From Octopus vulgaris (Eukaryota), in NCBI GenBank assembly GCA_951406725.2, contig OX597824.1:37820001-37884000 (forward strand): DNA of 64,000 nucleotides. Reading direction: 5' to 3'. A model generated the notes under the pieces. The model had not been told where the DNA came from. It ran no database searches and saw only the letters and a program-made list of their open reading frames with translations. Made by a program: the position numbers and the translations under genes. Below are positions 22,080-59,908 of the stretch, piece after piece (position 1 is the first letter of the stretch; each line of letters opens with the position of its first letter).

Positions 22080-23363
22080 CGAGGGGCGTTCAATAAGTAA
22101 TGCCCCTGACCCACTTCCCATAGCAGTAGAGCAAGGAAACTTGGAACAGTTATTAGTCTTTTTCTACATAGGAACCACCCAGAGTTACGCATTTCTGCCA
22201 TCGTTTGATGCAGCGCTGGAGACCGTTTTTGTAGAAGACCCCGTCTTGGTCCTCCAACCACGACGTGACTTTAGAAATCAAGGCTGCATCATCTGTGAAA
22301 TGCTTTCCTTTCAAAACTTCATGGCTGGGAAGAGGTGAAAATCAGAGGGTGCAAGGTCAGGAGCGTAGGGGGGATGGGGAGGAGTTCATAGCAGCACGCC
22401 TGTGCTTCTGACCTGGCGACACGCGAGTTGTGAACCGGAGCGTTGTCCTGCAGGAGGAGGATGCCTTTGCTGATCTTGCCCCGCCTCTTGATTTTGATAA
22501 CTTCTCATAATTTCCTCAAAAGTGAAGCATAATAGGCTCCTGTAATTGTGGTACCCTTTGCCAGGAAATCTGTCATCACTACTCCGTCCTGGTCCCAGAA
22601 GACTGTGAGCATGACCTTGCCAGCGGAGAGCTGCACCCTTGCCTTCTTTGGAGGAGGTGAGTCACGGTGCTTCCACTGCATTGACTGGGCTTTGGTCTCT
22701 GAATCATAGTGATGGACCCAGGTTTCATCCTGTGTAATCAGTCTTTTGAAAAATTTTGACTCATCTTCTTGGCACATCTCCAAATTCACCCTCGAGCACT
22801 CGACGCGTTCTTGCTTCTGGAAAGGCGTGAGCAACCTGGGAATCCATCTGGCAGACACCTTTTGCATATGCAAATGGTCATGAATGATAGTTTCCACAGA
22901 CCCGGTACTAATCTTGACCTCATGGGCTATTTGGCGAATAGTTATGCATCGATCTTCCAAAATGGCAGCCTCAACTTGACGGACAGATGCCTCATCAATG
23001 GCAGAAGGGGGTGACCAGATCTGGGAGCTGTTTCCACAGAGTTCCGACCATGTTTGAATTCACGATGCCAGCGTTTTACAAGGTCATATGATGGGGCATC
23101 ATCACCATAAGTTACTTTCATTTCATCAAAAGTCTCCTGTGGTGTGCGTCCTTTCAAATACAAAAACCAGATCACTGCTCGACACTCAACAGGCTCCATT
23201 TTACACTTGACTCAGTTCAAACACCTGTACATCAGAAACCACAATTAGCTCAGAGCTGTAATTTGCCACTTAATCTATAGAGATATAAATAATTGCACAT
23301 GCAAAATTTCAGCTAGATCAAACAACTGTAAGTGGGTCAGAGGCATTACTTATTGAACGTCCC

Positions 23364-24872: not shown

Positions 24873-24945
24873 TCATCATAATCGACGTCGGTGAGTTTGT
24901 CTTGAACCTCGTTAGTCGTTATCGTCTGCTATCGTTGTTGTTGCT

Positions 24946-25011
<66 letters not shown>

Positions 25012-25049
25012 GGTGTTGCTGTTGTTTTTAAAGCACCTGGCACAGGTGG

Positions 25050-25552
25050 GGCCCTGATCAGTTTAGATCAGTGTAAAACTTTCGATAAGATCGACCATCT
25101 GTACCTGGTGGCGGTCCTCAAGGCAGCTGGTTTCGGGCCTGTATTCAAGGGTTGGATCGCGACCATCGGTTCAGTGGTTAGAGTGAACGGTCACCTCTCA
25201 GAGCCGTTCAACATCATGCGCTCAGTCCGACAAGGTTGTCCCCTCTCGTCTCTCTTCAACGTACTGACTCTCGAGCTACTACTAAACAAACTGGAGGCGT
25301 TGGGAGGCATTCCGCGTGACTTAGGATGTGGGACATGCGTGTCAGCATATGCTGATGGTGTTACTGTAATGACATCGGGTCATAAACACATAGAAATGAT
25401 CGGCACCACTCTTCGGGACTACGTGGCGGTTTCAGGAGCGACAGATAACCAGGTAAAAATCAGTGGGCTTGCGGCTCGGCACCTGGAGAAGCAAGTCCAC
25501 GCCGTCCAACTGCGTCATTGGGCGCTGGAGGGACGGACCGGTTAAATTGCTC
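25050..25552 (+). mobile_element. Tx1/L1-like reverse transcriptase fragment
   Basis: LISLDQCKTFDKIDH..VRVNGHLSEPF..RSVRQGCPLS..SAYADGV (YADD mutated). Confidence 0.92.
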
Positions 25553-40863: not shown

Positions 40864-41065
40864 TGCCGCTGTCTAATATTGCTAGCGAATTTATGTCGTA
40901 AAATCCCACTCCAGCATGATGGAATAGTAATATGTCGTCCCCATTCGTTAGTGCGACTCAGCTATGCCGCTGTCTAATATTGCTAGCGAATTTATGTCGT
41001 AAAATCCCGCTCCAGCATGATGGAATAGTAATCTGTCGTCCTCATTCGTTAGTGAGACTCAGCTA
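40864..41065. repeat. Tandem duplication, 2 x 101 bp
   Basis: Units start at 40864 and 40965 and differ by only a few substitutions. Confidence 0.93.
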
Positions 41066-42509: not shown

Positions 42510-43873
42510 TGTGTGTCTACTCCAAGCTGCAAATTACATTTTTGCACCTAGCCAACTGAAATCTTGCATAAGGCACATCTTTTGAAGGAAAAGATAAAAA
42601 GCTATGTGCTCTTTAAAAAGAAACATTAATATATTTAAGCTTTTATAGTTATCAGACAAACTGTTTTGTATTCATTTTTATTACCATTATATTTGAACTT
42701 GTGTGTGTGTATATATGTGTGTGTATGTGTGTGCGTGTGTGTGTGTGTGTGTATGTGTATGTGTGTTTACTTGTGTGTAAAAATAGAAAAGCAAACACGA
42801 ATTCCAAATAATCATTTTAAGAAGACAAAAGGAAATGAATACTATTTTCTTACGAGTTATTTATTTATTTATTTTTTTCATTTTTCAAGCCCCAGGACAA
42901 AGAAAGTCGGTTACTTGATTTCCATGTAGTATAAGTGATCAAGATCTCGAAACCCAAGCCTGAAGAGGACACGGTTCCGTTGCAGATTAGTTTAAGGCCA
43001 GCAATTTTGAGTGAAGGGTGCAAACCAATTGCATCGAATCTAGTACTTGACTGGTACTTTATTTTATCGACCCCTGAAGGGTGGAAATGCAACGTTTACC
43101 TCAGTGGGATTTCAATTCAGAGCGTACAGAGCTGGAAGAGATGCCGCTAGGCATTTCGTTCGACGTGCTAACGGATCTGCCAGTTCGCCATCTTAATGGA
43201 TTCTTTGCCTCTTCAAAATTTATATTTTTAATGGTAAGAATGCTATTGAATATGATATCAAATTATCGATTAAGCAAATTAAAAACATTCTGAATCCAGA
43301 TCCTGCTTTTCTGTTTTAGTCATTAGAAAGTAAGACAAAATGTTTCGGTGTTTTTATTCCGGTTCTCTTGGTTATGAACACAAATCTTACCAAAATCAAC
43401 TTCGCTGTTTATCTTTTCAGATTTCTATTAAATTTAAGGCGGTGGAGGTGGACAAATGGAACCATTGGTAGAGTGTCGAACGGGGATGCATTGCGGTAGT
43501 TATTCCAGTTTTTTTTGCTTTTTTTTGCTTTTTCTCCATTGAGATCATTGAGATTTCGGGTGACAGAATTAATCTATCACCCAGTTTAAGGCTGTATCTG
43601 GCTCTCGGGTGCCTTTGGCGGAGTTCATTCTGATGCAAGCGTTCGAGATGGGTTTCATGTTCAAGATTAACATACTCTCTTCAGATTTCATGCGCGCGCG
43701 TGCATGCATGTGTGTGCGTGTCTGTGTGTGTGTGTGTGTATGTGTGTGTGTACGTGCGCACACACACACACACATATATCATTTGTGTTATGACTACAGC
43801 AGGTTACGAAAATTGCAGGATAAGGTCTGTTATATCAATTATGGAAACTCGGATAAATTTACAAAATTGAAAA

Positions 43874-43936
43874 ACTACACTTTCTTCTTTGCCAAAAGGC
43901 CGCTTTTCGGCGCTTTAGCTCAGATCAAAGTGTAGT
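43874..43936. pseudogene. Palindromic U2 snRNA 5'-end pseudogene
   Basis: Plus 43901-43936 matches U2 nt 3-38 (about 31/36, including AGATCAAAGTGTAGT); minus 43874-43902 matches U2 nt 10-38. Compared with the recalled U2 consensus. Confidence 0.85.
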
Positions 43937-44233
43937 TAACAATTGGGGGGAAAAAAAACTATAATTACGATGCAAATTGAATTTGAATCAAAAATGCTAA
44001 AGTTCAGGATTTTTAAATTCATTTACATTAAAAGTTTTTATTGTGAGAAAAATATTTGTTTAAATAAAGACAGAAATAGAATAAACACAAACTTCGATTG
44101 TAAAGATAAGGGAATAATATTCTAAAGGTCAATTAAAAAAAGGAAACTAGAGTTTTGGGAACAAAATTTATGAATCATCACAACTACATAAAGAATTTTT
44201 TTAGCATATATATGTGTAGTTGCGTATGTAGTG

Positions 44234-45737: not shown

Positions 45738-46562
45738 CGTATGACAATGCGTTAACAAGTATTCCCGCTCTCTGGGTTATATGTAAAAATACATGCAAGG
45801 TTCAAACATGTATACGCAGATAAGTGCAAAAGAAACGCATACATTTTGTCATTATACCCATTAAAAATATATGCAAATATATGAATATATATATGTATAT
45901 GTATATGTATATATATACAAAAAAATTCAAAATGTCTTGCATATGTCTTCATAGTGCTCATTTCAATAAACGGTTTCCCAGAATAACAGAAATATCATTT
46001 GCGAGATAAAGAAGCTTCTATTAAGAGACGGTAACAAATATTATGTTGGGCTGTCATTTTCTCACACTTGATGGATAGTGTTGCAATATCAGTGTTGTGT
46101 TATAACTATCAAACAGTAATTTTTCATGTTTGAAGAGAAGAAAAATAAAGTGACATGCATTTCGTTTCTTCATTTCTGCGTAATTCTTGTTTTCCAGGCA
46201 CCTAATAGTATTCTCTACTTCAAATGATGAAAACTTTAAAATACAAAGAAGCCTATAAAATTCTTAACGAATCTACGTTAACGTAGAAGAATAAAAGACA
46301 CTTATGCTAAAAGGTTAACAGAACTTCTCAAACGGATGAAAATGATGCGGTTGATAGCCAACAAGATCAATGTCTATAGGTAAATTGTCTGGGTGAGGGA
46401 GTGGGGGTGGGAAGGTCTGATACGAATAGTTCAAACTGAGGGAATTCCGTTAAACGCCAATTGGTGGAGTGCCATGTTAAGCCTATAACCGACAAAAAAA
46501 AATTAAAGAATAAAACAAAAAACACCTTATCGTTTCTGACTTTGATTTTTAATAATCAAGGA

Positions 46563-46955: not shown

Positions 46956-47288
46956 AAAGTTTAAAAAGAGTTAAGAGATAGGCTAACATCTTAATTAAGA
47001 CATATGAAACTAAGATAAAACATATCGGTCTCGATTTTTGGCACGAGGCCAGCAATCGTAAGAAAGCTGGTAAGACAATCACATCGACTTCAGTGCTGAA
47101 CTGGTAATTTTATCGACCCAGAAAGGATGAAAGGCAAAGTCGACCATGGTGGAATTTGAACTGAGGACATAAAGATGGACGAAATATCGCTAAGTATTTT
47201 GTCCGGCGTGGTAACGATTCTGTCAGCAGCTCAATGAAAAAACTCAAATGAAATATTTTACATGATTGTAGTTACGAACATACTATAT

Positions 47289-47874
47289 CTATTTCTTTAC
47301 TACCCACAAGGAGCTAAACACAAAGAGGACAAACAAGGACAGACAAACGGATGAAGTCGATTATATCGACCCCAGTGCGTAACTGGTACTTATTTAATCG
47401 ACCACGAAAGGATGAAAGCGGAATTTGAACTCAGAACATAGCGGCAGGCGAAATACCTATTTCTTTACTACTCACAAGGGGCTAAACACAGAGGGGACAA
47501 ACAAGGACAGACAAACGGATTAAGTCGATTACATCGATCCCAGTGCGTAACTGGTACTTAATTTATCGACCTCGAAAGGATGAGAGGCAAAGTTGACCTC
47601 GGCGGAATTTGAACTCAGAACGTAACGGCAGACGAAATACCTATTTCTTTACTACCCACAAGGGGCTAAACACAGAGGAGACAAACAAGGACAGACGCAC
47701 GGATTAAATCGATTACATCGACCCCAGTGCGTAACTGGTACTTATTTAATCGACCCCGAAAGGATGAAAGGCAAAGTCGACCTCAGCAGAATTTGAACTC
47801 AGAACGTAGCGGCAGACGAAATACCGCTAGGCATTTCGCCCGGCGTGCTAACGTTTCTGCCAGCTCGCCGCCTT
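47289..47874 (-). mobile_element. Head-to-tail trimer of SINE family B within one TSD
   Basis: Units 47641-47874, 47457-47640 and 47289-47456; flanking direct repeat TTGTAGTTACGAACATACTATATC at 47266-47289 and 47873-47896. Confidence 0.93.
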
Positions 47875-51063: not shown

Positions 51064-52466
51064 ATGACTTGGTCTGGGAGGTCGCTATCCTTGCTAAGGA
51101 GGGCTGAGTTTGCACGGGTGTTTATAGCATCTGTGATAACCTACCGCCTAACCATTGTGCCTTGCCCCGGGATGTGGCTGACCAAGCTGGAACGGATCCT
51201 TTTCCATTTTCTTATTTCGTTGTATTTTGCTGTATGTATACATGCACACACACATACATATATATATAGATAATATGCATATCTTACATCTGCTGCCAGA
51301 AATCGTTAAAGGGTGGATTAGGAATGCCTTGGATGATGATACACATGTATGCGCTGAGGCTGAGACACATCTGGCTCTACCTGGATGGTGAACGGGTGTG
51401 GTCACCGCATGTCAAGTTCTTCCTGTCACAATTGACGTCCCTGCGGAACGTAGGCGCATGGATCACACGGAGACCGAAAATGAGAAGAGGGGGTGCAGAC
51501 ATGCGCTCGCTCTCTTCTCCTGAGCGAGCAATACTGACAGCGAGGCTACCACTGCGGATTTTTATAGCGGGTTGGTAGAGCACATGTCCGACGACGTCCT
51601 GGGGGAGACTCTAGGCTTCGATGAGGAACAGCTTGTCAACCTGTTCGGAAGACCATTCGGGCCGAGTTATCGGGACAACTTCCAGAAATTCATGGCCTGG
51701 TTGCACTACCGATCGGCCTTGTCAGTTCGAGAGAGGTTGTCAAGGCATGGTGCTGGTACCCCAACCACATGCTCGAGGTGTAGGCGTGTCAAACTGTCAC
51801 GCACACCTTCGTACATTGTGAGGAACTAAGAGGACTGAGAACCTATGTCGAACAACTGGTATCAGATACCGAAAGAGTACGGTTATAGACTGTGTCTATC
51901 AAGATTGTGCCGCCTCCCTCCTTTAACAAGAAAAGGTAGGCGTCATTTTTCTGCATAGTAGTCGTATTGGAAGAGACAGTATGGGTGACGCGGTGAAGAG
52001 GAATTGAGACAGGCAACTTTATCTCTGGACATGGGTTGGTTAGTTTTTTTAACTACCACCTGTCCAGAAAGATCAGCCTGGAGAAAAGGTGCCTGTCTCA
52101 AAGAACGTTTGAGAAAAGATGGACAAATGTCGTAAAGAGGTTGAGAGAGACTGGGACCGCGCTAGTGTAGCCGGTATGAAAGGAAAAGATGGAAAAAAAA
52201 AAACGGAAGAAAAAACAACACAAAAAGGGTAACATAAAAAGTTTAAAAAAAAAGGAAAAAAAACCGGCGGGTCGAACACGAACCCGAAAAATATATCATC
52301 GTGTAATTTTAAAATTCATTTCGACTTCATTGTACTGTGTAAATTCATCCGATTTCATTATATTCGATTTTTTAACTAATGTATAACCCCAGCCCCTAAA
52401 TGTTTTTGTTTTGTCCTTGTACTACCCCCTCTGTGTCATGGCCTGTGTGCCGAATAAAAGAAATTA
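51064..52466 (+). mobile_element. Decayed Tx1-like LINE 3' portion with 3' UTR
   Basis: WSGRSLSLLRRAEFARVFIASVITYRL, GGLGMPW, DNFQKFMAW..ALSVRERL..TCSRC (zf-RVT-like); ends AATAAAAGAAATTAG. Confidence 0.88.
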
Positions 52467-53977: not shown

Positions 53978-55239
53978 CCAGGTCATCCCATAAGTTCTGT
54001 CCGATTTTACCTTTTTTATGATAGTATTTTAGAATGTCTAATGAAATTAGAAATTATTTTTATGCATTTTTGTACATTTAAACTAATTAAATATTATTTC
54101 ACAGAATAATAGAATCAAAATTTCTTTGATTAAAACCCTTTCTAACATGGAAGTATCCAAAGAGCATTTGAGGCACATAATGCTTTATGAGTACAAAAAA
54201 AGGAAACTCTGCTGCCGAAGCGACTCGAAACATATACTCAGTTTATGGGAAAGAATGCTTGAATGAAAGAACTTGCAGAAGATGGTTTGCAAAATTCAGA
54301 AGTGGAGATTTCAGCCTTGAAGATGAAGATCAAACAGGGGGTCCAGTTGAGTTTGATGATAAGCTTCTTGAGGCATTACTTGAAGAAAATCATGCATTAT
54401 CAGTTGAAGAATTGACAATAAAGCTTAGTTCAAACTACACAACTGTTCATCGTCATCTTCAACAACGTGGAAAGGTTCCTAAACTTGGAAAATGGGTGCC
54501 TCATGAATTGTCCGAAAACAACCGCAAATCCCGATTTGACATCTGCTCTTCTCTCCATTTTCGCGAACTCGTTTCACCCTTTTTGGATTGACTTGTGACT
54601 AGTGACGAAAAATGAATCTTCTATCGAAATGTTAAACGTCGTAAAAAGTGGCTTAGTAAAAGGGAAAAAGCTCATCCACCACCGAGAAGGGAACTTCATG
54701 GAAAAAAGGCTCTGTCTATCTTGTGGGATTGCAAAGGAGTAATTCACTTTGAATTGTTATCACCTAATGAAACAATCAATGCTCAAGTCTATTGTCAGCA
54801 ATTAGAGCGTTTGAACCAAGCTATGAAGAAAAAACGACTCGCTTTAGTGAATCGAAAAAGAAGTGATGTTTCATCAGGAAAATGCGCAACCCCACACTGC
54901 AGAGATCACATCACAGAAGATCGAAGAGCTTGGTTGGAAAGAGTTCCTCATCCACCTTATTCTCCCGACCTTGCTCCTTCAGACTACCATTTGTTTCGTA
55001 GTTTTCAGAATCGTTTGGGGGACATAACTTTCGCGAGCCAGGAGGAGATCGAAACTGACATTTCAGAGTTCTTTGCTTTGAAACCAGAGTTTTACATTGA
55101 CGGGATTTAAAAGCTTGTAAATAGATCGAAGGAAGTCGTAGATAATCGGGGAAAGTACATTGATGATTAAATTTCAATTAAATAACATTTGGTCATTTGA
55201 TTTCTTTATTAAAAATTCGGACAGAACTTATGGGCTGAC

Positions 55240-57949: not shown

Positions 57950-59074
<1,125 letters not shown>

Positions 59075-59477: not shown

Positions 59478-59908
59478 TGTATTTCAAGATGGTCGGGTTT
59501 TTTTCTTTTTTTGCCAAATAAACATAAGCAATATATTATTCGTTCTTTACTCGTTTATTACTGTTCTTATTCTAACTCATGTCCATTATCCGGAAATCTT
59601 TCGTCACACATCTGTGACCTCTTCAGCGACACTTTCTGTCTTCGTGTGTGTTCTTGCTCCGCTTATTCCATTCTTTTCTTCTATAGAAGAACGGAATGAA
59701 ATAAGAGAAGAACAGAACGGAATAAGCGGGGCAAGAGCATACACGAAGACAGAAAATGTGGCTGGAGAGGTCACAGATGTGTGACGGAAGATTTCCGGAC
59801 AATGAACATGAGTTAGGATAAGAATAATAGTAAACGAGTGAAGTACGAATATATAGTGCTTGTGTTTATTTGGCAAACAAACAAAAATAATGACCATCCC
59901 GAAATACA
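59478..59908. repeat. ~430-bp fold-back (arms about 200 bp, 23-nt loop)
   Basis: Arms 59478-59682 and 59706-59908; mismatches are mostly transitions. Confidence 0.93.

Follow-up and report, generated by a model that had tools for sequence, protein, structure and literature searches.

A likely relic of reverse transcription: two back-to-back U2 snRNA pieces within a dispersed repeat of Octopus vulgaris

A stretch of 64,000 nucleotides of Octopus vulgaris DNA, here called the window, contains a short palindrome whose two halves both resemble the 5' end of U2 snRNA, which raises the question of how two opposite-facing pieces of one small RNA came to lie back to back and whether the resulting hairpin serves any purpose. 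An earlier note, made from the sequence, had described the palindrome as a record of hairpin-primed second-strand synthesis on a cellular RNA, and the letters and coordinates that it gave are confirmed here. Most likely, a reverse-transcription accident occurred once, long ago, and its product was spread by a repeat element; the copy in the window would then be a decaying relic, probably without a function of its own.

The palindrome is a 63-nt hairpin formed by two opposite-facing U2 snRNA 5' pieces at approximately 43874-43936, with the following parts:

43874..43902, minus strand: left arm, U2 nt 10-38 (by eye against the Rfam consensus and fly U2)
43901..43936, plus strand: right arm, U2 nt 3-38 (cmscan, and by eye against the Rfam consensus and fly U2)
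43901..43909, no strand: inversion junction, where a shared CG, nt 3-4 of U2 in the right arm and nt 10-11 in the left, closes a 5-nt loop

Between 43873-43902 and 43908-43937, 23 of 30 positions are paired around the loop of 5 nt. Upon folding of 43865-43944 as RNA, free energies of -27.4 kcal/mol for the plus strand (z = -5.7) and -33.5 kcal/mol for the minus strand (z = -7.1) are obtained, and none of 200 shuffles folds as well on either strand. Outside simple sequence, no other hairpin of the window combines 22 or more pairs in 30 with a loop of at most 10 nt, and no second copy was found when one was sought within the 64 kb. The resemblance to U2 was counted by eye against the Rfam consensus plus the extra A of fruit-fly U2 (PMC4640811 supplement), in fly numbering throughout. 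In the right arm, 31 of 36 positions match (differences at nt 8, 14, 15, 19 and 23), and in the left arm 26 of 29 (differences at nt 22, 27 and 28). As these mismatches fall at different sites in each arm, each arm is nearer to U2 than to the other arm. The comparison with the Rfam U2 model that the earlier note had proposed gave a sub-threshold match for one arm of the two: cmscan against RF00004 gives the right arm 22 bits (E 0.015), below the gathering score of 46, with nt 1-38 alone aligning well, while a search with the left arm by itself lists no U2 match even at an E cut-off of 10, so that its U2 identity rests on the count by eye. Thus read, both arms derive from U2 as had been claimed, and the claimed common stop near nt 38 holds, both arms ending at U2 nt 38. 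The palindrome is not a full-length U2 snRNA gene, for which RF00004 would be expected to reach at least 46 bits; it keeps the 5' part, is truncated at the 3' side and has no A tail at either end, as in tailless retrocopies.

Other repeats and relics populate the window. A long inverted repeat outside simple sequence lies at 59537-59851, with 146-nt arms that are 88% complementary, a 23-nt loop and further symmetric flanks, and has the look of a MITE-like or fold-back element. Copies of an abundant SINE-like repeat, which we take to be an octopus SINE, occur at 43022-43197 and in at least 10 other places with 69-81% identity, and a 184-nt piece of it stands in tandem at 47285-47825. A 101-nt unit is present in two tandem copies, 96% alike, at 40864-41065. 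Mariner-type transposase relics are found at 58275-58898 (Transposase_1, E 7e-23) and, judged by eye, at 22505-23059 and 54181-55110, and a weak zf-RVT match at 51524-51829 marks a non-LTR retrotransposon relic. On the plus strand, 46198-46380 has strong splice-like signals at its bounds and, by eye, stops in three frames, and may be a non-coding exon near the hairpin.

The locus is one member of a larger set. Contigs from four of 24 runs were aligned to 43785-44205 at 80% likeness, in which contigs do not equal loci nor depth copy number. Partial fits made up 26 of 28 contigs in organism A (run X2), 28 of 34 in organism D (X14) and 11 of 11 in organism E (X19), and contigs less than 90% alike numbered 21, 26 and 6, respectively. 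The partial fits mostly stack on 43838-43946; indeed, summed depth peaks at 43875-43889 with 1184 (X2), 1746 (X14) and 53 (X19), against a single-locus depth of about 46, 46 and 4.8, which is regained outside approximately 43830-43949, with a small second bump at 44040-44099 in X2. Contigs of up to 2.9 kb align over some 40-70 letters only and then continue with differing ends. At least 8 of the 27 pieces listed, from a total of 76, are non-orthologous and span the loop into both arms. The contigs of the fourth run, X8, which may stem from RNA, cover 44058-44205 of the locus and one paralog piece, which leaves the hairpin outside their reach, and they carry no weight for or against any reading here. 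Judged by eye, likeness to the window persists in the loose ends (22 of 88 seen) as far as about 43811 leftwards and 43965 rightwards, giving the following feature:

43811..43965, no strand: visible extent, as a lower bound, of an unclassified dispersed repeat (contig pieces, and loose ends by eye)

The family likeness thus reaches at least 60 nt to the left of the U2 arms, and since it continues beyond both arms, the common unit is larger than the palindrome. The palindrome is therefore, with good probability, a passenger within a dispersed repeat. Because the copies are dispersed across contigs, the host element is presumed to be mobile; an old segmental duplication instead of a mobile element is possible.

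The paralogs also inform on the history of the palindrome. Most of them keep the U2 letter at 43906 (nt 8) and 43913 (nt 15), where the copy in the window has drifted, and paralog loose ends have the same non-U2 letters as the window copy at nt 19 and nt 27-28. No alternative letter occurs at nt 14 among the variants listed, a listing that is incomplete and in which an absent row is no proof. Some paralogs lack two letters at 43930. As judged from these letters, the common departures from U2 point to one founder that was then multiplied and not to repeated independent insertions. The paralog variants listed cluster on the CpG sites 43901, 43902, 43909 and 43911, and inner stem pairs are broken. 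Such clustering of changes on CpG is expected from methylation-driven decay. The event that made the palindrome accordingly most likely did not take place at this locus, which descends from a multi-copy repeat, and in this respect the earlier reading has to be moved from the window to a founder; its other elements stand, namely the derivation from U2, the end of both arms at nt 38 and the junction at CG.

The orthologous site, where an empty state had been suggested as a check, is filled in both organisms in which it could be seen, and no empty site appeared in these two. In organism D, one contig holds the locus over 43785-44201 with 17 other letters and 2 gap letters; in organism E, 43866-44044 is present with 2 other letters. 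Ten of the 17 differences in organism D can be placed, and three of them fall in the 63-nt hairpin (43906, 43911 and 43934), that at 43934 breaking a stem pair and that at 43911 weakening one. Divergence is thus at least 3/63 (at least 4.8%) in the hairpin and 17/417 (4.1%) overall, in a single comparison with small numbers. Within these small numbers, the comparison with organism D shows no extra conservation, the hairpin appearing no better preserved than its flanks.

Turning to the centre of the palindrome, the loop consists of exactly U2 nt 5-9 and is closed by the only two CG dinucleotides of fly U2 nt 1-38. This is what would be left if, in the founder, a cDNA had run to nt 3, its terminal CG had paired with the CG at nt 10-11 and the strand had then copied itself to nt 38, the new end joining the target through the 4-nt overlap. 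Self-priming of this kind, which the earlier note had seen at the centre, would need a single RNA and has an in vitro precedent in group II intron-type reverse transcriptases (bioRxiv 2022.03.14.484287). The CG junction on which it builds is real, but its primer would be of 2 bp, 16% of random junctions would have an overlap this long, and the two other routes considered below yield the same letters. Furthermore, the CG pair forms with a probability of 0.02-0.06 in the decayed arm, and no snap-back insertion made by a LINE was found in the literature searched. Nor did the copied-back strand continue into the attached target DNA, as it ends where U2 ends and the inverted match of the flanks is no better than chance. 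We consider this route unlikely.

The flanks had been described as extending the symmetry, with AATTG on one side and CAATT on the other. This is not borne out: of 3000 random segment pairs, 2390 do as well as the 5-bp inverted match seen here, which puts it at chance level; since AATT is self-complementary, a direct repeat mimics such inverted symmetry. The letters of the flanks fit better, if only suggestively, with a direct repeat that has degenerated and resembles a target-site duplication:

43865..43877, plus strand: left copy of the degenerate, target-site-duplication-like direct repeat, its last four letters being the start of the left arm
43941..43961, plus strand: right copy of the degenerate direct repeat, in which the G and A runs have lengthened

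In the window copy itself, the direct-repeat score is 19, a value that 172 of 3000 random pairs also attain and that is not significant. Organism D lacks two letters at 43945, and the paralog loose ends behind 43931 have a short form of the right repeat in which 15 of 17 letters equal the left flank (by eye, from 30-letter loose-end consensuses). The last four letters of the left repeat copy are U2 nt 35-38 in antisense, an overlap that, at four or more letters, has a 1.6% chance, while arm and flank overlap by one letter only on the right. The left flank resembles, without fully matching, the L1-type target motif given in PMC5322556. Among the contig pieces and the 22 of 88 loose ends, every copy of the host repeat that could be judged has the hairpin, and we infer the target-site duplication from the flanks themselves. 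Two other candidate readings of this region were dropped: a mariner-like likeness of the left flank, since 4 of 40 shuffles scored as high as the best match of one flank (42) and 12 of 40 as high as that of the other (48), and an endonuclease-like reading frame seen by eye across the empty site, which found no support in Pfam. In the six-frame Pfam scan of the flanks, one of 12 frames gave a weak match (Cyclin_N, E 0.059), below the cut-off.

An origin by reverse transcription is highly probable. For the step that joined the two arms, we tentatively prefer twin priming by a LINE reverse transcriptase on U2 at nt 38, to which we give somewhat less than an even chance. According to this scheme, the nick in the bottom strand of one target would prime a first cDNA on U2 at nt 38, running to about nt 3, and the end of the top strand, which matches U2 nt 35-38 in its final four letters, would prime a second cDNA running to nt 10. 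The two U2 cDNAs would then join at the CG, repair would duplicate some 14 bp or more in direct orientation, and the host element would multiply with the hairpin as its passenger. Twin priming would therefore explain both the stopping of the two arms at the U2 end and the direct flanks. The segments are indeed opposite, with overlaps of 4 nt at the target junction and 2 nt at the inversion junction, but the other segment is U2 and not the 3' end of a LINE. As a precedent, 3'-truncated copies make up 65% of snRNA copies (166 of 256 analysed) and mostly show target-site duplications as well as complementarity at the junction, while inverted chimeras of U1, U2, U5 and U6 with L1 fit twin priming (PMC4476161). 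In parallel, about 70% of inverted L1 have 2-5 bp of microhomology at the 5' junction (PMC2912911), and antisense RNA chimeras, including tRNA and 5S cases, are likewise ascribed to twin priming in PMC13174262. Against twin priming, the cases described in these papers join an snRNA to a LINE and not two copies of one snRNA, and tailless copies among the vertebrates screened in PMC5322556 are those of mammals and a lizard only. A reverse-transcriptase relic is present in the window at 24916-25545 (Pfam RVT_1, E 7.5e-11), with nine solved non-LTR reverse-transcriptase relatives and a Tx1-named relative at 37%; such an enzyme therefore existed in the genome, which speaks to availability only. A single decayed copy tells little on the enzyme step responsible.

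The third route places the inversion at the DNA level. A tailless U2 copy (nt 1-38) would have come first, and a later replication switch in the founder would have made the strand jump at the 4-nt overlap, copy nt 34-10 backwards and return at the CG. Both overlaps that it requires exist, the loss of U2 nt 1-2 and no more is as predicted, and the majority class of snRNA copies is the single tailless one (the 166 of 256 of PMC4476161). However, two rare events would be needed at one site, and a single-arm relative is not evident in the loose ends seen (22 of 88). We regard a template switch as unlikely, slightly more so than self-priming. Good support exists for what twin priming, self-priming and the template switch have in common, and for that alone: a U2 piece was reverse-transcribed, ended at nt 38 and was later spread by a repeat.

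Several known systems resemble the palindrome in part. Tailless snRNA retropseudogenes (PMC5322556, PMC4476161) likewise consist of the 5' part of U2 cut beside the branch-point recognition region and have no poly(A), and the direct-repeat flanks and the short overlap with the target may be further points of likeness; unlike them, the palindrome comprises two overlapping back-to-back copies, is of invertebrate-type U2 and has been multiplied within a repeat. Twin-primed inverted snRNA/L1 chimeras (U1, U2, U5 and U6 in PMC4476161, with tRNA and 5S cases in PMC13174262) also contain a reversed, 3'-truncated snRNA whose end overlaps the duplicated target, but their partner is a LINE, whereas that of the palindrome is a second U2 piece. 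SINEU of crocodilians (PMC4494074) is a multi-copy repeat with U2-derived sequence from one master copy, and many copies from one master are indicated here as well; SINEU, however, has a U2/U1 5' head and a poly(A) tail, whereas the U2 part of the palindrome is internal, with repeat on both sides. Among recently active families, the repeat table for Octopus vulgaris in PMC13282606 includes a single 'SINE U' and a single 'U-L1' entry, and the palindrome's repeat family may already be in that library, unnamed; palindrome-related terms had no match in one supplement of the same paper, and PMC4758252 held nothing relevant to the palindrome.

Two further element types touch snRNA sequence. The Utopia and Keno retrotransposons (PMC4640811) have their break point in the same U2 region, but they insert before U2 nt 39, and the arms of the palindrome end one base short of their site. 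The link to them that the earlier note had drawn finds no support here: neither U2 from nt 39 onward nor an element adjoins the palindrome, and none of the six frames of 43785-44206 matches Pfam. Dada DNA transposons (PMC3706591) are alike as mobile elements with inverted copies of snRNA sequence, but their sub-terminal repeats are 7-9 bp long and far apart, and they have a transposase and sit in U1, U6 or tRNA genes. At the palindrome, no insertion in a small-RNA gene, transposase or short sub-terminal inverted repeats were found.

Whether the hairpin could act as an RNA had been raised together with its origin, as a transcript would have the size of a pre-miRNA and one arm antisense to U2. 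Size (about 60 nt) and stable fold agree with the idea of a microRNA precursor or a cis signal for the host element, two transition differences between the arms give G-U pairs on the minus strand, and paralog pieces pile up on the hairpin. Conservation does not follow: in the one comparison with organism D, with its small numbers, neither arm is conserved beyond the flanks, the ortholog breaks the pair at 43934 and weakens the one at 43911, and paralogs lack inner C-G pairs at CpG sites. In addition, the pile-up may stem from the 80% cut-off, the loop has only 5 nt with a GC-rich stem behind it, and no Rfam family reaches its gathering score anywhere in the window. A function of the hairpin as RNA is thus very improbable. 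Six short motifs had no match in four supplement files of an octopus microRNA paper (PMC9699675), files that possibly contain no sequence lists.

A more specific role can be written down for the minus strand, where the copy would have been recruited as the 3' end of a 271-nt RNA (44186-43916), a putative box C/D guide for methylation of U2 A30, with two elements that belong to this rival reading only:

43920..43923, minus strand: box D-like CTGA, created by one substitution at U2 nt 23 and immediately preceded by 13 nt antisense to U2
44175..44181, minus strand: box C-like heptamer with a 4-bp closing stem

The geometry is that of such a guide, with a perfect box C, a box D after the 13-nt U2 antisense (at least 10 nt being expected) in the A30 register and a 4-bp closing stem. 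A box C 50-400 nt upstream occurs in 168 of 2544 tiles, and the closing stem accompanies it in 6 tiles, which overlap and probably represent a single site. There is also a weak match to Rfam snoU2-30 (RF00493), but its 15.3 bits (E 3.4) fall short of the gathering score of 60, and Rfam aligns a different box C, of poor quality. The guide is not invariant, as the change of organism D at 43934 lies within it, a single substitution separates the box D from plain U2 antisense, and the paralog loose ends lack it. The pattern was found post hoc, and no host intron is known. We hold a box C/D guide at this locus to be hardly probable at all. As a separate observation, the box D and closing arm of the Rfam snoU2-30 consensus read like U2 antisense with few changes. 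This likeness of letters hints that guides of the U2-A30 type could arise from antisense U2 copies.

Wider searches returned little that resembles the palindrome. The junction motif matched seven loci in metagenome contigs, all of them the same GC-rich sequence, which lacks the remainder of the hairpin; the arm-end pattern matched six loci in viral contigs, none with a U2 interior; the U2-arm motif had no match in viral contigs, nor the left-arm motif in prokaryote genomes; and three palindrome motifs occurred in no paper in the full text of the literature. A U2/U2 palindrome, or a repeat carrying one, was not found in the literature searched, whose scope lay outside older subscription papers, Repbase and Dfam. 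The component events are known, and the arrangement and its spread appear to be undescribed.

Collectively, the locus extends 3'-truncated snRNA retrocopies to invertebrate-type U2, in a back-to-back U2/U2 form. An unclassified repeat family with U2 antisense sequence can mislead the annotation of U2, snoRNAs and microRNAs. It is improbable, but would be of wider reach, that an undescribed mobile family uses the captured U2 fold-back as a working part and seeds hairpins antisense to the U2 branch-point arm, whose copies, perhaps including that in the window, would be raw material for snRNA guides or small RNAs. If one copy were truly a working box C/D guide, it would give a direct view of snRNA guides arising from antisense retrocopies of their own target.
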